The notes under the pieces: generated by a model
The model's input: only the letters and a program-made list of their open reading frames with translations
The model's database searches: none
What the model was told of the DNA's origin: nothing
Shown here: positions 258 to 5,473 of the stretch, piece after piece
How positions within the stretch are numbered: the first letter of the stretch is position 1
Layout: each line of letters starts with the position of its first letter
Position numbers and translations under genes: made by a program
From: an uncultured Candidatus Binatia bacterium
GTDB taxonomy: Bacteria; Desulfobacterota; Binatia; UBA9968; JAJDTQ01
NCBI GenBank assembly: GCA_964291295.2
Contig: OZ219754.1
Location: 288,001-352,000 of the forward strand
Reading direction: 5' to 3'
Length of the DNA stretch: 64,000 nt

Positions 258-339
258 CCCGGGGAAACCGGGAACCCCGGCCCGGGAACGGAACCGGGAA
301 GAAAGCCGGAAACGGCAAGAAGGTTGGAAGCCCTGGCTG

Positions 340-376
340 AAAAAAGCCCCGGCTGACGCCTGGCCAGCCGGGGCTC
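340..376 (-). terminator. Rho-independent terminator
   Basis: Minus strand AGCCCCGGCTG-loop-CAGCCGGGGCT followed by a T run. Confidence 0.85.
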
Positions 377-427
377 GGTGTACTGTCGGAATTGACCAAG
401 ACCCTCAATTCCGAAAGGCTCGAGAGC

Positions 428-466
428 CTAGGTCTCAGTCACCTCGCAGCTGCATATGTCACTCAT
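428..466 (-). CDS. Putative 12-aa micropeptide MSDICSCEVTET (or ORF within a small RNA)
   Basis: ATG at 466, TAG at 428-430, AAAGGAGGTG 8 nt upstream; own promoter and terminator. Confidence 0.55.
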   Translation of the reverse strand: MSDICSCEVTET

Positions 467-498
467 ATTTTGACCACCTCCTTTCTCTGCTGGCTTGC

Positions 499-527
499 AT
501 CCTAAGGAAGAGGAACGTGTTTGTCAA
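499..527 (-). promoter_or_regulatory. sigma70-type promoter
   Basis: TTGACA (527-522), 17-nt spacer, TAGGAT (504-499). Confidence 0.75.
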
Positions 528-1186: not shown

Positions 1187-2026
1187 CTACCGCGCCGGCA
1201 ATGAATGGAGCAGTTCCCGGCACCGGGCCGGGTAGTCCGTGATGATGCCATCGACCCCGAGCGCCAGCAGCTCCCGCATCTCGTCCACCTCGTTCACGGT
1301 CCAGACATGGACCTCGACGTCCCGCCGGTGGGCGGCGGCCACCAGCGCCGGCGTGACCAGATCCATGCCCTGGTGGCGCCGCGGGATCTGGAGCGCCTGT
1401 CCGGGGGCCTCCCGCGGCGGCTCCTGTCCGGTCCGGAGCGCGGTCACGAAGGTGCGGATCTCCCCGGTGGAGAATCCCGTGGCCACGGGCAGGCCGCGGC
1501 CCCGGATGACCGCGCGTGCGGCGTTCATGGCGGCATCGTCCTCGGCCGCCACCAGCACCTGCTCCGCCTTGCCGCACTCCTCCACGAGATCGAACAGCGT
1601 GTCCATGGCCGGCACCGGCAACTCCTTGATCTCCAGCGTCGCCCGGGCGCGGGGAAGGTCCGAGAAGAACTCCCGCAGGGTGGGGACGCGGATCCCCCGG
1701 CCACGGAACGGATGGCTGGCGCCGCCGTCGGGCGTGAAGCGGAAACCGGCGTCCAGCCGCCTCAACTCGGCCAGGTTCATTTCCCGTACCGTGCCGGCGC
1801 CGTCGGTGGTGCGCTGGACGGTATCGTCGTGGATGACGACGATCTCGCCGTCGCGGCTGGCGTGAACGTCCAGTTCGATGAAGCCTGCGCCATCATCGAG
1901 GGCGCGGCGGAACGACGCCAGCGTATTCTCCGGCATGAAGCCGGCCGCCCCGCGATGCCCCCCGATTCTGGGCGGGGGATCCGAGAAGAATGACGGACAG
2001 GATGGCTGCGAAGGTGCGTCGCTCAT
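1187..2026 (-). CDS. Glycerophosphodiester phosphodiesterase
   Basis: GHRGAAG..PENTL, IELDVH, HDDTVQRTT, WTVNE, GVDGIITDYP motifs. Confidence 0.92.
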   Translation of the reverse strand: MSDAPSQPSCPSFFSDPPPRIGGHRGAAGFMPENTLASFRRALDDGAGFIELDVHASRDGEIVVIHDDTVQRTTDGAGTVREMNLAELRRLDAGFRFTPDGGASHPFRGRGIRVPTLREFFSDLPRARATLEIKELPVPAMDTLFDLVEECGKAEQVLVAAEDDAAMNAARAVIRGRGLPVATGFSTGEIRTFVTALRTGQEPPREAPGQALQIPRRHQGMDLVTPALVAAAHRRDVEVHVWTVNEVDEMRELLALGVDGIITDYPARCRELLHSLPAR

Positions 2027-2360: not shown

Positions 2361-3911
2361 ATGGCCGCGGAGGACCGTCTGCTCAGGCTGAAGGAACTGG
2401 ACCGCCGAGCGCAGCTCGGGGGCGGCGAGGTGCGCATTCGCCGGCAGCACCAGGAGGGCAAGCTGCTGGCGCGGGAACGTATCGAAATCCTGCTGGACCA
2501 GGGCAGCTTCGTGGAACTGGACCGTCTGCGGACCCACGAATGCACCGACTTCGACATGCAGGATCAGAAGATTCCCGGCGATGCCGTGGTGACGGGGTCC
2601 GGCACCATCGACGGCCGCACCGTATTCGTCTACGCCCAGGACTTCACCGTATTCGGGGGCAGCCTGAGCGGGGTGGTGGCGGACAAGATCTGCAAGGTCC
2701 AGGAGCTGGCCATGAAGAACGGCGCTCCCATCCTGGGCATCAACGACTCGGGGGGTGCGCGCATCCAGGAGGGGGTGGTCAGCCTGGACGGCTACGCCCG
2801 CATTTTCGCCAACAACGTCGCCGCCTCGGGCGTCGTCCCGCAGATTTCCGCCATCATGGGACCCTGCGCCGGCGGCGCGGTCTACTCGCCGGCCATCACC
2901 GACTTCATCTTCATGACCCGGAACACCGGGTACATGTTCATCACCGGGCCGGACGTCATCAAGACCGTCACCCACGAAGAGGTTTCCAAGGAAGAGCTGG
3001 GCGGGACCGAGACCCATACCCGCAAGAGCGGCGTGGCCCATTTCTCCGCGGACAACGACAAGGACTGCCTGCTCATGATACGCGAGTTCATGAGCTTTCT
3101 CCCCAGCAACAACCTGGAGGAACCGCCGTTCCGTCCGACCGAAGACGATCCCCAGCGGCGCGACCAGCGGCTGCCGCACGTGGTGCCGGCGAACCCCAAC
3201 CTTCCCTACGACATGAAGGATCTCATCGGCGTGGTGGTGGACGAGGGTTATTTCTATGAGGTCCACAAGGAGTTCGCGCCCAACATCGTGGTGGCGTTCG
3301 CGCGTCTGGGAGGGCGCACGGTGGGCATCGTCGGCAATCAGCCGGCCCATCTGGCCGGGTGCCTGGACATCAATGCGTCGGTGAAGGCGGCACGGTTCGT
3401 GCGCTTCTGCGACTGCTTCAACATACCGGTCATCACCTTCGTCGACGTTCCCGGCTTTCTGCCCGGCACCGATCAGGAGTACAACGGCATCATCCGCCAC
3501 GGCGCCAAGCTCCTGTTCGCCTACGCCGAGGCGACGGTGCCGAAGATCACCGTCGTCACCCGGAAGGCCTACGGCGGCGGCTACATCGTCATGGCCAGCA
3601 AGTTTCTGAAAGGCGACATAAATCTGGCCTACCCGGCCTCGGAGATCGCGGTGATGGGCCCGGAAGGCGCCATCAACATCGTCTTCCGCAGCGAGATCAA
3701 GGAGGCGAAGGACGAGAAGAAGACCCGGCAGAAGCTGGTGAACGACTACCGGAGAATGTTCGCCAACCCGTTCCGGTCCGCCGAGCTGGGCAACCTCGAC
3801 GCCATCATCGTGCCCGAGGACACCCGGCCCACGCTGATCCATGCGCTGGAGATGCTGAAGAAGAAGCGCGACAACAGCCTCCCGCGAAAACACGGCAACA
3901 TGCCGCTCTGA
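2361..3911 (+). CDS. pccB: Acyl-CoA (propionyl-CoA-type) carboxylase carboxyltransferase beta subunit
   Basis: DSGGARIQEG, GPCAGGAVYSPA, DVPGFLPG, RKHGNMPL C-terminus. Confidence 0.93.
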   Translation: MAAEDRLLRLKELDRRAQLGGGEVRIRRQHQEGKLLARERIEILLDQGSFVELDRLRTHECTDFDMQDQKIPGDAVVTGSGTIDGRTVFVYAQDFTVFGGSLSGVVADKICKVQELAMKNGAPILGINDSGGARIQEGVVSLDGYARIFANNVAASGVVPQISAIMGPCAGGAVYSPAITDFIFMTRNTGYMFITGPDVIKTVTHEEVSKEELGGTETHTRKSGVAHFSADNDKDCLLMIREFMSFLPSNNLEEPPFRPTEDDPQRRDQRLPHVVPANPNLPYDMKDLIGVVVDEGYFYEVHKEFAPNIVVAFARLGGRTVGIVGNQPAHLAGCLDINASVKAARFVRFCDCFNIPVITFVDVPGFLPGTDQEYNGIIRHGAKLLFAYAEATVPKITVVTRKAYGGGYIVMASKFLKGDINLAYPASEIAVMGPEGAINIVFRSEIKEAKDEKKTRQKLVNDYRRMFANPFRSAELGNLDAIIVPEDTRPTLIHALEMLKKKRDNSLPRKHGNMPL

Positions 3912-3934
3912 GAGCGGCCCGGGGTCGTCCGACG

Positions 3935-5473
3935 ATGTTCAAACGGATCCTGGTGGCCAACCGCGGCGAGATCGCCGTCCGAATCATCCGCGCGTGCCGG
4001 GAACTGGACATCCAGAGCGTGGCTGTCTATTCCGAGGCGGACCGAGAGGCGCTGCACGTCAAGTACGCCGACTACTCCTATCCGGTGGGGCCGGCTCCGT
4101 CCACGGAGAGCTATCTCCGGATCGATCGGATCATCAGCGCCGCCCGGAAGAGCCGGGCCGACGCCATTCACCCGGGCTACGGCTTTCTCGCCGAGAACCC
4201 GGCGTTCGCCCGGGCCTGCGAGGAAGCCGGCATCGTGTTTCTGGGGCCGTCCCCGGAAATCATCAAGCAGATGGGCGACAAGGTCCACGCCCGGGCGCTG
4301 ATGAAGAAAGCGGGGCTGCCGGTGATTCCGGGCTCCGACGACATCCTCAGTTCCGAGCAGGAGGTGCTGGAAACCGCCGACGCCATCGGCTACCCGTGCG
4401 TCCTCAAGGCGGTGGCGGGCGGCGGCGGCAAGGGGCTGCGGCTGGTGGAGTCCGGCGGCGAGATACGCTCGGCCTATCGCGCGGTGCGTTCCGAGGCGGC
4501 CTCATCCTTCGGCGACTCCCGCCTCTATGTCGAGAAGTACCTGGAGCACTGCCGTCACATTGAAGTCCAGCTGTTGGCCGACATCTACGGCAAGGTGCTG
4601 CACCTGTTCACTCGGGAGTGCTCCATCCAGCGGCGCCACCAGAAGATCATCGAGGAGTGCCCCGCGCCCACCATCGACACCCGGATGCAGAAAGCCATGG
4701 GCAAGACCGCGGCCCAGGGGGCCCGGGCGCTCGGCTACACCGGCGCCGGCACCATGGAATTCCTGGTGGACCGCAACCGGAACTTCTACTTTCTGGAGAT
4801 GAACACCCGCCTGCAGGTGGAACATGCCATCACCGAGCGGGTCATGGGCATCGATCTGGTCAAGGCGCAGATCCATGTCGCCGCGGGCACACCGCTGTCC
4901 TGGTCCCAGCGCCAGATCCGGCCCACCGGGCACGCCATCGAATGCCGCATCTACGCCGAGGACCCGGAGACCGATTTCATGCCCTGTCCGGGCAAGATCG
5001 AGGGCTTGCGGCTGCCCGAGGGATTCGGCATCCGCAACGACTGCGGCGTGTACGAGGGCGCCGAGATTCCCATCCACTACGACCCCATGATCGCCAAGCT
5101 CATCGTCTGGGGCGAGGATCGCGCGGAGGCCATACGGCGCCTCAAGCGGGCGTTGCGCGAGTACCAGGTCCGGGGGGTCAAGACCAACATCCCGTTCCAC
5201 CAGTGGCTGCTGCGCCACCCGCAGTTCATCGAGGGCGACGTCTACACCGGATTCGTGGACGACCAGCGGGGCTACATGACCATGGAGCAGGTCTATCCGG
5301 ACCGTCACGTGGCGCTGGCCTCGGCGGCCATCGTGGCGCTGCACCGGGAGCAGCAGCGCGCGCTCCGCATGGTGGAGAAGGGGGCGGCGGAGAAATCGGA
5401 GTGGCGCGAGGCCGGCCGCCGGGAGGCGCTGCGGCTTCGCTCCGACGGGTCCGCTCCCGGGCGCGGCTGGTAA
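3935..5473 (+). CDS. accC: Biotin carboxylase subunit
   Basis: MFKRILVANRGEIA, HPGYGFLAEN, ECSIQRRHQK, EMNTRLQVEH. Confidence 0.93.
   Translation: MFKRILVANRGEIAVRIIRACRELDIQSVAVYSEADREALHVKYADYSYPVGPAPSTESYLRIDRIISAARKSRADAIHPGYGFLAENPAFARACEEAGIVFLGPSPEIIKQMGDKVHARALMKKAGLPVIPGSDDILSSEQEVLETADAIGYPCVLKAVAGGGGKGLRLVESGGEIRSAYRAVRSEAASSFGDSRLYVEKYLEHCRHIEVQLLADIYGKVLHLFTRECSIQRRHQKIIEECPAPTIDTRMQKAMGKTAAQGARALGYTGAGTMEFLVDRNRNFYFLEMNTRLQVEHAITERVMGIDLVKAQIHVAAGTPLSWSQRQIRPTGHAIECRIYAEDPETDFMPCPGKIEGLRLPEGFGIRNDCGVYEGAEIPIHYDPMIAKLIVWGEDRAEAIRRLKRALREYQVRGVKTNIPFHQWLLRHPQFIEGDVYTGFVDDQRGYMTMEQVYPDRHVALASAAIVALHREQQRALRMVEKGAAEKSEWREAGRREALRLRSDGSAPGRGW

Follow-up and report, generated by a model that had tools for sequence, protein, structure and literature searches.

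The window analysed here is a 64,000-nt stretch of contig OZ219754.1 from an uncultured Candidatus Binatia bacterium, and the element under study is a small intergenic unit on its minus strand, at window positions 340-527. An initial annotation, made from the letters alone, had listed in this unit a promoter (TTGACA-N17-TAGGAT), a Shine-Dalgarno (SD) site, a short open reading frame (ORF), the arms of two hairpins and a terminator with a T run, and every one of these elements was recovered there on the minus strand. Our analyses identify the SD site as an exceptionally long complement of the 3' tail of 16S ribosomal RNA (rRNA), followed by a mini-ORF whose frame is conserved while its peptide largely is not, within a structured RNA that we relate, at a distance, to the Rfam family Ms_IGR-5.

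Reading along the minus strand, the unit opens with a -35-like hexamer, TTGACA (527-522), which overlaps the stop codon of the upstream ORF, and a -10-like hexamer, TAGGAT (504-499), separated from it by a 17-nt spacer. With 10/12 matches, this pair was the only sigma-70-like site in positions 1-1500 (shuffle mean 0.1). Among the relatives printed out, TTGACA is kept, reading ATTGACA in other families, and the -10 hexamer reads TAGGAT, TAAGAT, TAAAAT or TATGAT. The RNA is predicted to begin at 492, 7 nt past the -10 hexamer and at the start of the invariant alignment columns, a position to which the conservation boundary and the promoter geometry point. At the other end, RNAfold placed a 14-bp G+C-rich terminator hairpin (376-363/357-344) with a T run (345-340), and despite this a simple terminator scan returned 0 terminators at the locus; among relatives, 6 of the 14 stem pairs show changes on both sides. 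Upstream, a HEAT-repeat-like ORF (524-1168) occupies the same strand as the unit, and the downstream neighbour, on the plus strand at 3-257, is the convergent C-terminus of a PgeF/YfiH-like protein. Because the HEAT gene ends at the -35 hexamer and the downstream gene is convergent, the RNA unit is predicted to stand alone between two genes with its own promoter-like site and terminator hairpin. The earlier proposal of a separately transcribed unit is thus borne out as far as the promoter-like site, the terminator hairpin and the convergent or variable neighbours are concerned, the start near 492 being a prediction.

The extended SD, or "anti-tail", site AGAAAGGAGGTGGTC occupies positions 486-472 and is complementary to 15 nt of the 16S 3' tail. 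The single 16S gene of this genome ends in GGATCACCTCCTTTCT, with which the site forms 15 contiguous base pairs including one G:U (-26.3 kcal/mol); a second SD-like site within the ORF, the in-frame GAGGTG at 445-440, reaches -13.5 kcal/mol with the same tail. When contiguous in-register pairing with the tail, G:U allowed, was counted over both strands of the 3.7-Mb genome, sites of at least 16, 15, 14, 13 and 12 nt numbered 1, 3, 8, 28 and 77, respectively. The three sites of at least 15 nt are the antisense of the 16S gene itself, a stretch antisense within a coding region, and the site at 486-472, which is the only one of the three with a start codon after it. The claim that this site could pair with 16S rRNA over ~15 nt with one G:U, well beyond a normal ribosome-binding site, was therefore upheld. 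The antisense site in the coding region (C1:1501443, minus strand, outside the window) was considered as a second copy and set aside as chance: it is a perfect 15-nt tail complement lying antisense in a 256-codon ORF with no start codon after it. The mRNA of that ORF carries a copy of the 16S tail sequence, probably also by chance.

An Rfam scan at permissive thresholds gave one clear match to the locus, RF02471 (Ms_IGR-5, "Actinobacteria sRNA", that is, small RNA), sub-threshold and aligned end to end (window 321-491, minus strand; model positions 1-184), whereas the initial annotation had recognised no named family. The family was reportedly named by Li et al. (RNA, 2013). Ms_IGR-5 has no assigned function, and the match therefore names the RNA without explaining it. 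The RF02471 consensus contains an SD site ending GGUGGUC, then GUGAGGUGgCug and UAG, as at the locus, and the two share a full-length alignment, a stand-alone gene and the same order of blocks: a purine-rich SD ending GGUGGUC, a short frame, GUGAGGUGRCUG, a stop codon in a helix, AAUYCC, CAGYCACC and a terminal hairpin. They differ in that the host here is not an actinobacterium (near-identical public copies are titled Candidatus Binatia and Syntrophobacterales) and in that the middle domain is shorter and otherwise paired, with a hairpin masking AAUYCC; an ATG start and a T-run terminator also set the locus apart. Elsewhere RF02471 scored 167.6 bits in Mycobacterium, 93.4 in Streptomyces, 47.5 in an Ignavibacteriales metagenome-assembled genome (MAG), 32.7 in an unpublished Terriglobales MAG and 24.7 in Leptospira.

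The element is single-copy in its source genome, and BLAST located it in 40 of the 41 genomes of the order (one of these being a marginal 22-nt match), with no match in the remaining genome. All 24 genomes of the genus carry it at 86-95% identity, which is high for intergenic DNA, and other families of the order match at 73-83% over the SD and ORF part. A pattern of two sequence blocks, applied to one genome per species, retrieved at least 120 loci. Among the matches listed, actinomycetotal carriers include Mycobacterium, Mycolicibacterium, Nocardia, Streptomyces, Pseudonocardia, Aeromicrobium and others; further carriers are Terriglobales, Ignavibacteriales and Leptospira weilii, and MAG records titled Candidatus Binatia, Syntrophobacterales and "Deltaproteobacteria" hold forms as in the window's own order. 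Homologues that share the layout of the element were found in the genus and the order, and also in Actinomycetota, Terriglobales, Ignavibacteriales and Leptospira. The series AAUYCC, a few nt, CAG, a few nt and ACC follows 28-170 nt downstream in 132 of 150 copies, and since it formed no part of the scan pattern it is independent evidence of common descent. These comparisons argue that the locus is a distant relative of Ms_IGR-5, with related copies in several phyla.

For further searches we built a model, R1, on 34 sequences from several phyla with the structure set by hand; it matched all 100 sources searched and scored the window's own copy at 72.3 bits. In the phylum of a Mycobacterium, RF02471 was found in 44 of 151 genomes at E <= 1e-3, 20 of them above the cut-off, and in 0 of 14 control genomes, which included Escherichia coli, Bacillus subtilis and Corynebacterium glutamicum. 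Surveys with R1 used stricter filters and sampled genomes, such that "not found" does not equal absent: a draw from the window's phylum gave 3 of 151 genomes, all three in the window's class; the class itself gave 65 of 121 genomes and 30 of 65 genera, with 12/14 in some families and 0/14 in others; and the phylum of the Terriglobales MAG gave 10 of 121. Among unpublished genomes, the Terriglobales MAG supplied one row of the R1 seed, the centre of the Terriglobales survey and the 32.7-bit score; two others were read among the copies retrieved by the Rfam model, one of which also gave an alignment row, and two more enter only the phylum count of the Mycobacterium survey.

The genes around the element differ between carriers. 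In Mycobacterium a class IV aminotransferase lies upstream and a THAP4-like haem-binding protein is convergent downstream, in Leptospira the neighbours are an MFS transporter and a patatin-like protein, and in another family of the window's order pgeF and HEAT genes flank the element as they do in the window, but with its orientation flipped. A search of plasmids with the window's own sequence gave no match; a mycobacterial copy as query matched a 2.66-Mb Nocardia farcinica record filed among plasmids, which by its size is more likely chromosomal. Two further records deserve separate mention. A MAG record titled Gammaproteobacteria holds a copy (peptide LVDLWTCEVAAS) that cannot be told apart from the form found in mycobacteria, pointing to a contig that was mis-binned or mislabelled. 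MT835602.1 ("UNVERIFIED: Bacteriophage sp.", from a human faecal sample), also matched by the mycobacterial query, holds a full-length copy at 1497-1611 that scores 63.9 bits with R1, with a GC content of 0.62 and a TGA stop; the record is unannotated, and its DNA looks actinobacterial and not phage-like.

Conservation of the anti-tail site was assessed on a pooled set of 125 distinct copies, of which 18 came from BLAST in the order, 61 from the pattern scan, 20 from the Rfam scan and 26 from the R1 scan. The five nucleotides before GGAGG (x1 to x5) would face the last five nucleotides of the tail, U-C-U-U-U from the 3' end. At x1, G stands in 62 copies and A in 52 (A or G in 114/125), and at x2, which faces the C of the tail, G stands in 122/125; at x3 to x5, A occurs in 106 and G in 17-18 copies each, with A or G in 124, 123 and 123 of the 125, respectively. 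After GGAGG follow U (124), G (123), G or A (110/15), U (123), C or U (116/9), then C or U again (99/11, others 15) and A or G (70/43), so written U-G-R-U-Y-Y-R, all of which can pair with the tail's ...CUGGAUCAC. A and G thus alternate opposite U while only G is found opposite C, from which it follows that substitutions in the 5' site preserve pairing with the rRNA tail. Most copies can pair with 16-17 nt of the tail, and several class relatives carry a perfect 18-nt complement. The over-long complementarity to 16S rRNA is real, exceptional and conserved. The tail itself is identical in the source genome, one class relative and a Mycobacterium, and the comparison of tail and site rests on these three genomes, the Leptospira and Terriglobales assemblies having no 16S gene and the Ignavibacteriales assembly the 5' part of 16S only. 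The Leptospira weilii copy has A where the penultimate C of the tail would be faced, and is one of only three copies without G there.

The mini-ORF behind this site runs from ATG to TAG over 12 codons (466-428, TAG at 430-428) and encodes MSDICSCEVTET, with GAGGTG (Glu-Val) 9 nt ahead of the stop codon. In 118 of the 125 copies a start codon (ATG, GTG or TTG) lies 3-16 nt past GGAGG, in frame with GAGGUG and with no stop codon between the two, as against 0 and 34 copies for the other two frames, and in 125 of 125 a stop codon stands exactly 9 nt past GAGGUG (TAG 114, TGA 6, TAA 5). The frame spans 11-19 codons, 12 in 67 of the 118, and among 30 loci of the order its length changes by whole codons. 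In one actinobacterial group CTG replaces the TTG of close relatives, a sign that CUG may serve for initiation after a very strong SD site. A stop specific for RF1 was considered on the strength of TAG in 30/30 copies of the order and 117/120 copies of the pattern scan, and was ruled out by TGA in 5/20 and TAA in 2/20 of the copies that the Rfam model retrieved.

The predicted fold of the 156-nt stretch has an energy of -65.8 kcal/mol and surpasses 200 of 200 shuffles (z -3.68), and folds from many clades share a common plan: a free 5' purine tract, helices P0, P1 and P2, the motif AAUYCC, a variable apex and a terminal hairpin. P0 is a small hairpin around the start codon, in which the end of the SD site pairs with mid-ORF codons. 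In the family 84.8% of its cells are paired, and at the locus it corresponds to one or more weak hairpins at 474-454 (GTCA 474-471/TGAC 461-458 or ATATG 468-464/CATAT 458-454). P1 joins GGUGRCUG, within the ORF, to CAGYCACC, here as GGTGACTG (443-436; 100% pairing among 18 sequences from the order) and CAGTACACC (385-377), which has one bulged A. P2 is the stem above P1, and its 5' strand holds the stop codon. AAUYCC lies on the 3' side between P2 and P1, and a strong terminal hairpin follows directly after P1. For 99 distinct rows aligned on R1, standard pairs filled 83.1% of cells, as compared to 77.4 +/- 0.4% in column shuffles (0 of 500 reached the observed value) and 24-52% when partners were displaced by 1-3 columns; changes on both sides occurred in 8 of 19 pairs, including 5 of 6 in P2. 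As read from the sequences, the triplet that pairs with the stop codon differs between TAG and TGA copies, that is, the partner changes together with the stop codon. When a MAFFT alignment was folded with RNAalifold, bulges shifted the register and P1 emerged only in part.

For the middle part of the RNA in the window's order, two predicted folds are about equally good. Hairpin 1 of the initial annotation (AGGCTC/GAGCCT, arms 429-424 and 421-416) begins within the stop codon, and alternatively serves as the 5' strand of a rod with 399-408; hairpin 2 pairs GGAATTGA (412-405) with TCAATTCC (395-388) and contains the family-wide AATTCC at 393-388. The rod fold reaches -65.4 kcal/mol with 91.7% of cells paired and changes on both sides in 8/36 pairs, and the two-hairpin fold -62.8 kcal/mol with 89.3% of cells paired and such changes in 13/36 pairs; hairpin 2 has 7 changed pairs, 4 of them counted in the latter figure. 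It pairs AAUYCC with the apical GGAAUUGA and beats 200 of 200 shuffles in all rows of the genus. As a family-wide feature this pairing of AAUYCC with the apex was rejected (p <= 0.05 in only 30 of 121 sequences, median z -0.55); it is strong in the window's own order only, and hairpin 2 looks like a clade-specific mask of AAUYCC. A pseudoknot of AAUYCC with the 5' purine tract or the start region was likewise discarded, visual checking having found no consistent covariation.

We favour, with a probability of roughly 45%, the reading that this locus encodes a ribosome-engaging structured RNA of ~150 nt, a distant member of Ms_IGR-5, which is remodelled when its mini-ORF is translated. The single-stranded 5' end would capture a 30S subunit through nearly the entire free 16S tail, and the ribosome would then translate the 12-codon frame, the peptide itself being largely irrelevant. 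The second half of the ORF and its stop codon form the 5' strands of P1 and of the stem above, and because the 5' strands of the helices are the message, translation would have to unzip P0, P1 and the stop-codon stem P2. When the stop codon occupies the A site, the P-site codon is preceded by GAGGUG at a distance of 6 nt, which is the SD spacing at initiation, and a terminating ribosome could for this reason be held by its own 16S tail; re-pairing of GAGGUG, 9 nt behind the stop, would keep the RNA open during such a putative pause. The 3' strand AAUYCC...CAGYCACC would thereby be exposed, and the freed CACC would pair with GGUG in the anti-tail site, so that no second subunit could load before the first one leaves. 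This last step is a folding prediction: when the RNA was refolded with the footprint of a ribosome at the stop codon held single-stranded, the freed CACC was predicted to pair with GGUG of the 5' site and hairpin 2 to form. Candidate actions of the opened RNA are pairing with a target, occlusion of its own SD site and reporting of the pool of free ribosomes. The dual-function sRNA and the 30S-trapping RNA that the initial annotation put forward both share ground with this reading.

Several points weigh against such a ribosome-remodelled RNA, beginning with its family assignment and its expression. The RF02471 score was 36.2 bits with a gathering cut-off of 45 (E 9.9e-07 for a 501-nt stretch, 1.7e-6 genome-wide), and transcription in the source organism is presumed from the DNA. 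Only two short RNA-library contigs were found, both from relatives (90-95% identity): one of 165 nt covering 361-514, which reaches 22 nt upstream of the predicted start and into the promoter, and one of 236 nt covering 206-248 and 341-474, which bridges into the convergent gene; we did not count these contigs as evidence of a transcript, as assembled contigs carry neither ends nor strand. The frame also has its irregularities, with 7 of 125 copies lacking a canonical in-frame start (4 of them with CTG instead) and one copy found with the Rfam model having its ATG in a different frame. Part of the apparent invariance is built into the sampling: the pattern scan required GGAGGTGGTY and TGYGAGGTGRCTG, and invariance there counts only for the 64 copies found otherwise. 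The alignment used for covariation was fitted to the R1 structure and many of its rows are related, both of which favour the structure. GAGGUG lies partly within P1, so its conservation need not mean pairing with rRNA, and pausing at internal SD-like sites is debated. Within the order two or more Cys are kept in 29 of 30 peptides, with synonymous changes, and the peptide may have a local role there. Finally, no target or phenotype is known for any family member.

A related reading, which we consider unlikely though it survives better than the other rivals, is that the RNA parks 30S subunits or protects the tail: a duplex of 15-18 bp would hold idle subunits, shielding the tail or damping other initiation, and the mini-ORF would be merely the exit route. 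The extension of the complementarity to the last nucleotides of the mature tail, its wobble-aware conservation and the perfect 18-nt match in class relatives all fit this idea, as does a promoter that looks constitutive. So do the start codons, which are often weak (of 118, ATG 52, TTG 36 and GTG 30) and lie mostly 10-12 nt past GGAGG, directly behind the extended duplex. Parking, however, leaves unexplained the fixed stop codon, GAGGUG and the 3' motif inside conserved helices. Titration of ribosomes would also need very high copy numbers, and the gene is single-copy.

We regard as less probable still that this is an ordinary base-pairing or protein-binding small RNA (sRNA) whose functional part is the rod or junction with AAUYCC, the SD site and short ORF serving only to stabilise the 5' end against decay. 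A C-rich unpaired motif of this kind resembles the seed regions of sRNAs in Gram-positive bacteria. According to passages of two reports, Ms_IGR-5 is expressed as an sRNA unit in Streptomyces lividans and S. avermitilis (PMC8079986, PMC8780764). There is also a precedent for the stabiliser in the STAB-SD of Bacillus thuringiensis cry3A, as described in part of PMC4113751, where an SD-like sequence near the 5' end pairs with 16S rRNA, binds 30S subunits and blocks RNase J1. The STAB-SD, however, acts without initiation and within a long 5' untranslated region, whereas here the site is followed by a start codon and a conserved frame with no long gene. A stabilising site that does not direct initiation is not what was found, since 118 of 125 copies have an in-frame start 5-14 nt after the SD site (binding of 30S here is a prediction). 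A stabiliser needs no ORF with a fixed end, yet frame (118/125) and stop position (125/125) are kept, and for a stabiliser a far shorter complementarity would seem enough. Engagement by translating ribosomes, which the favoured reading demands, agrees with the ribosome footprints on the Ms_IGR-5 homologues of Mycobacterium abscessus and M. smegmatis given in a part of PMC4974804.

The initial annotation had also suggested a highly translated, metal- or thiol-binding micropeptide with a CxC motif, which now appears improbable. The very strong SD site and the retention of Cys in the order speak for it, as do the synonymous TGC/TGT and GAC/GAT changes. The peptides of the order (30 loci) read M[SNYCI][DE][ILS]C(S)CEVTET in the genus and MI[DNE]K..CEVAET-like elsewhere, with N-terminal halves that vary even inside the genus. 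Across the whole family, though, the only invariant residues are Glu-Val (118/118), which are GAGGUG itself, and the codon before them may be TGY, CGY, AGT, CCT or GAA. That codon gives Cys in all copies of the order and of the pattern scan (where the pattern required TGY) but in only 22 of the 46 copies found with Rfam and R1, the others having Arg, Ser, Pro or Glu. Cys is absent altogether from 13 of 118 peptides, and a second Cys is usually missing outside the order. What conservation there is tracks RNA pairing. Two residues ahead of the Cys, actinobacterial copies have W, R or G, the amino acids of NGG codons, and this apparent conservation arises because GG-AC pairs with GUCC at the end of the SD site. 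In copies from the genus, GAG GTG ACT GAG ACC TAG, the 3' half of the ORF, is unchanged even at synonymous positions, whereas the 5' half shows both kinds of change. Neither residue conservation beyond the RNA constraint nor conserved neighbouring genes, whether partner or modifying genes, as expected for a functional micropeptide or a RiPP precursor, could be found, and the comparison of peptide with RNA features came out in favour of the RNA and the frame. Since only Glu-Val is invariant, the preceding codon varies and the 3' half lacks synonymous change, constraint is, as judged from these alignments, mainly on the RNA and the act of translation and not on the product.

The same contrast separates the locus from known dual-function sRNAs. 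SgrS/SgrT, Spot 42/SpfP and RNAIII/hld are likewise small, terminator-bounded RNAs that are both structured and translated. In those systems the peptide is conserved and the pairing region lies apart from the ORF, whereas this element lacks a conserved peptide and has a helix strand in the 3' half of its ORF. A cis-acting leader peptide or attenuator of a downstream gene is highly improbable, for although a short ORF with alternative hairpins and a terminator behind it has the classical look of attenuation, the next gene is convergent both here and in Mycobacterium with no co-oriented regulated gene after the terminator, the neighbours differ between phyla and the unit is flipped within the order (5 loci examined), and no antiterminator pairing with the 5' strand of the terminator was seen by eye. 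The remodelling that we favour nevertheless resembles such systems, in that a ribosome on a short frame picks the fold in trpL-type attenuators and an SD-like sequence stands in frame at a fixed distance from the stop codon in the prfB frameshift site. They differ from the locus, where there is no downstream gene and neither a slippery site nor a second frame was noticed, and the 9-nt spacing between GAGGUG and the stop codon would fit relaxed pairing and not frameshifting. By analogy only, 6S RNA and Ms1, which occupy RNA polymerase, may be compared as abundant small RNAs that mimic the substrate of a core machine (PMC4191392); the target in our case would be the 16S tail.

A broader proposition would make the Ms_IGR-5-like RNAs as a whole a multi-phylum "anti-tail" class, in which the 30S subunit is hooked by the whole 16S tail and a throw-away mini-ORF flips the folds, the RNA acting as a gauge or governor of free ribosomes; this we hold to be doubtful. 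Literature searches, within the collection of papers covered, turned up no mechanism of an anti-tail, ribosome-flipped RNA, and no relevant match for the peptide strings of the element or for guessed sRNA names in Mycobacterium tuberculosis. The portions of the Ms_IGR-5 literature that were covered make no mention of an ORF or of a match to the 16S tail, and the matching passages of Shell et al. (2015) contain nothing on an Ms_IGR-5-like RNA. Relative to the literature covered, three features appear to be new, namely the occurrence outside Actinomycetota, a wobble-aware match to almost all of the 16S tail and a conserved frame with a non-conserved peptide, although the Ribo-seq tables of PMC4974804 or lists of mycobacterial small ORFs may already hold the ORF. 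Taken together, these results indicate that an sRNA filed as "actinobacterial" has relatives in several other phyla and that its stop codon and a second SD-like site are built into conserved helices. If the ribosome is indeed both ligand and actuator of this RNA, cells would have a new way to sense or limit their translation capacity; if the 5' site and ORF merely stabilise an ordinary sRNA, the re-annotation would still be useful, with the caution that this "sRNA" is translated.

Beyond the element and its immediate neighbours, a glycerophosphodiester phosphodiesterase-like ORF (window 1187-2020, minus strand) lies upstream of the HEAT-repeat ORF on the same strand, its NCBIfam matches (E 1e-32 to 1e-35) falling under the curated cut-offs. 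Farther along on the plus strand, the translations of 2361-3911 and 3359-5473 read like a carboxyltransferase of the propionyl- or methylmalonyl-CoA type followed by a biotin carboxylase.

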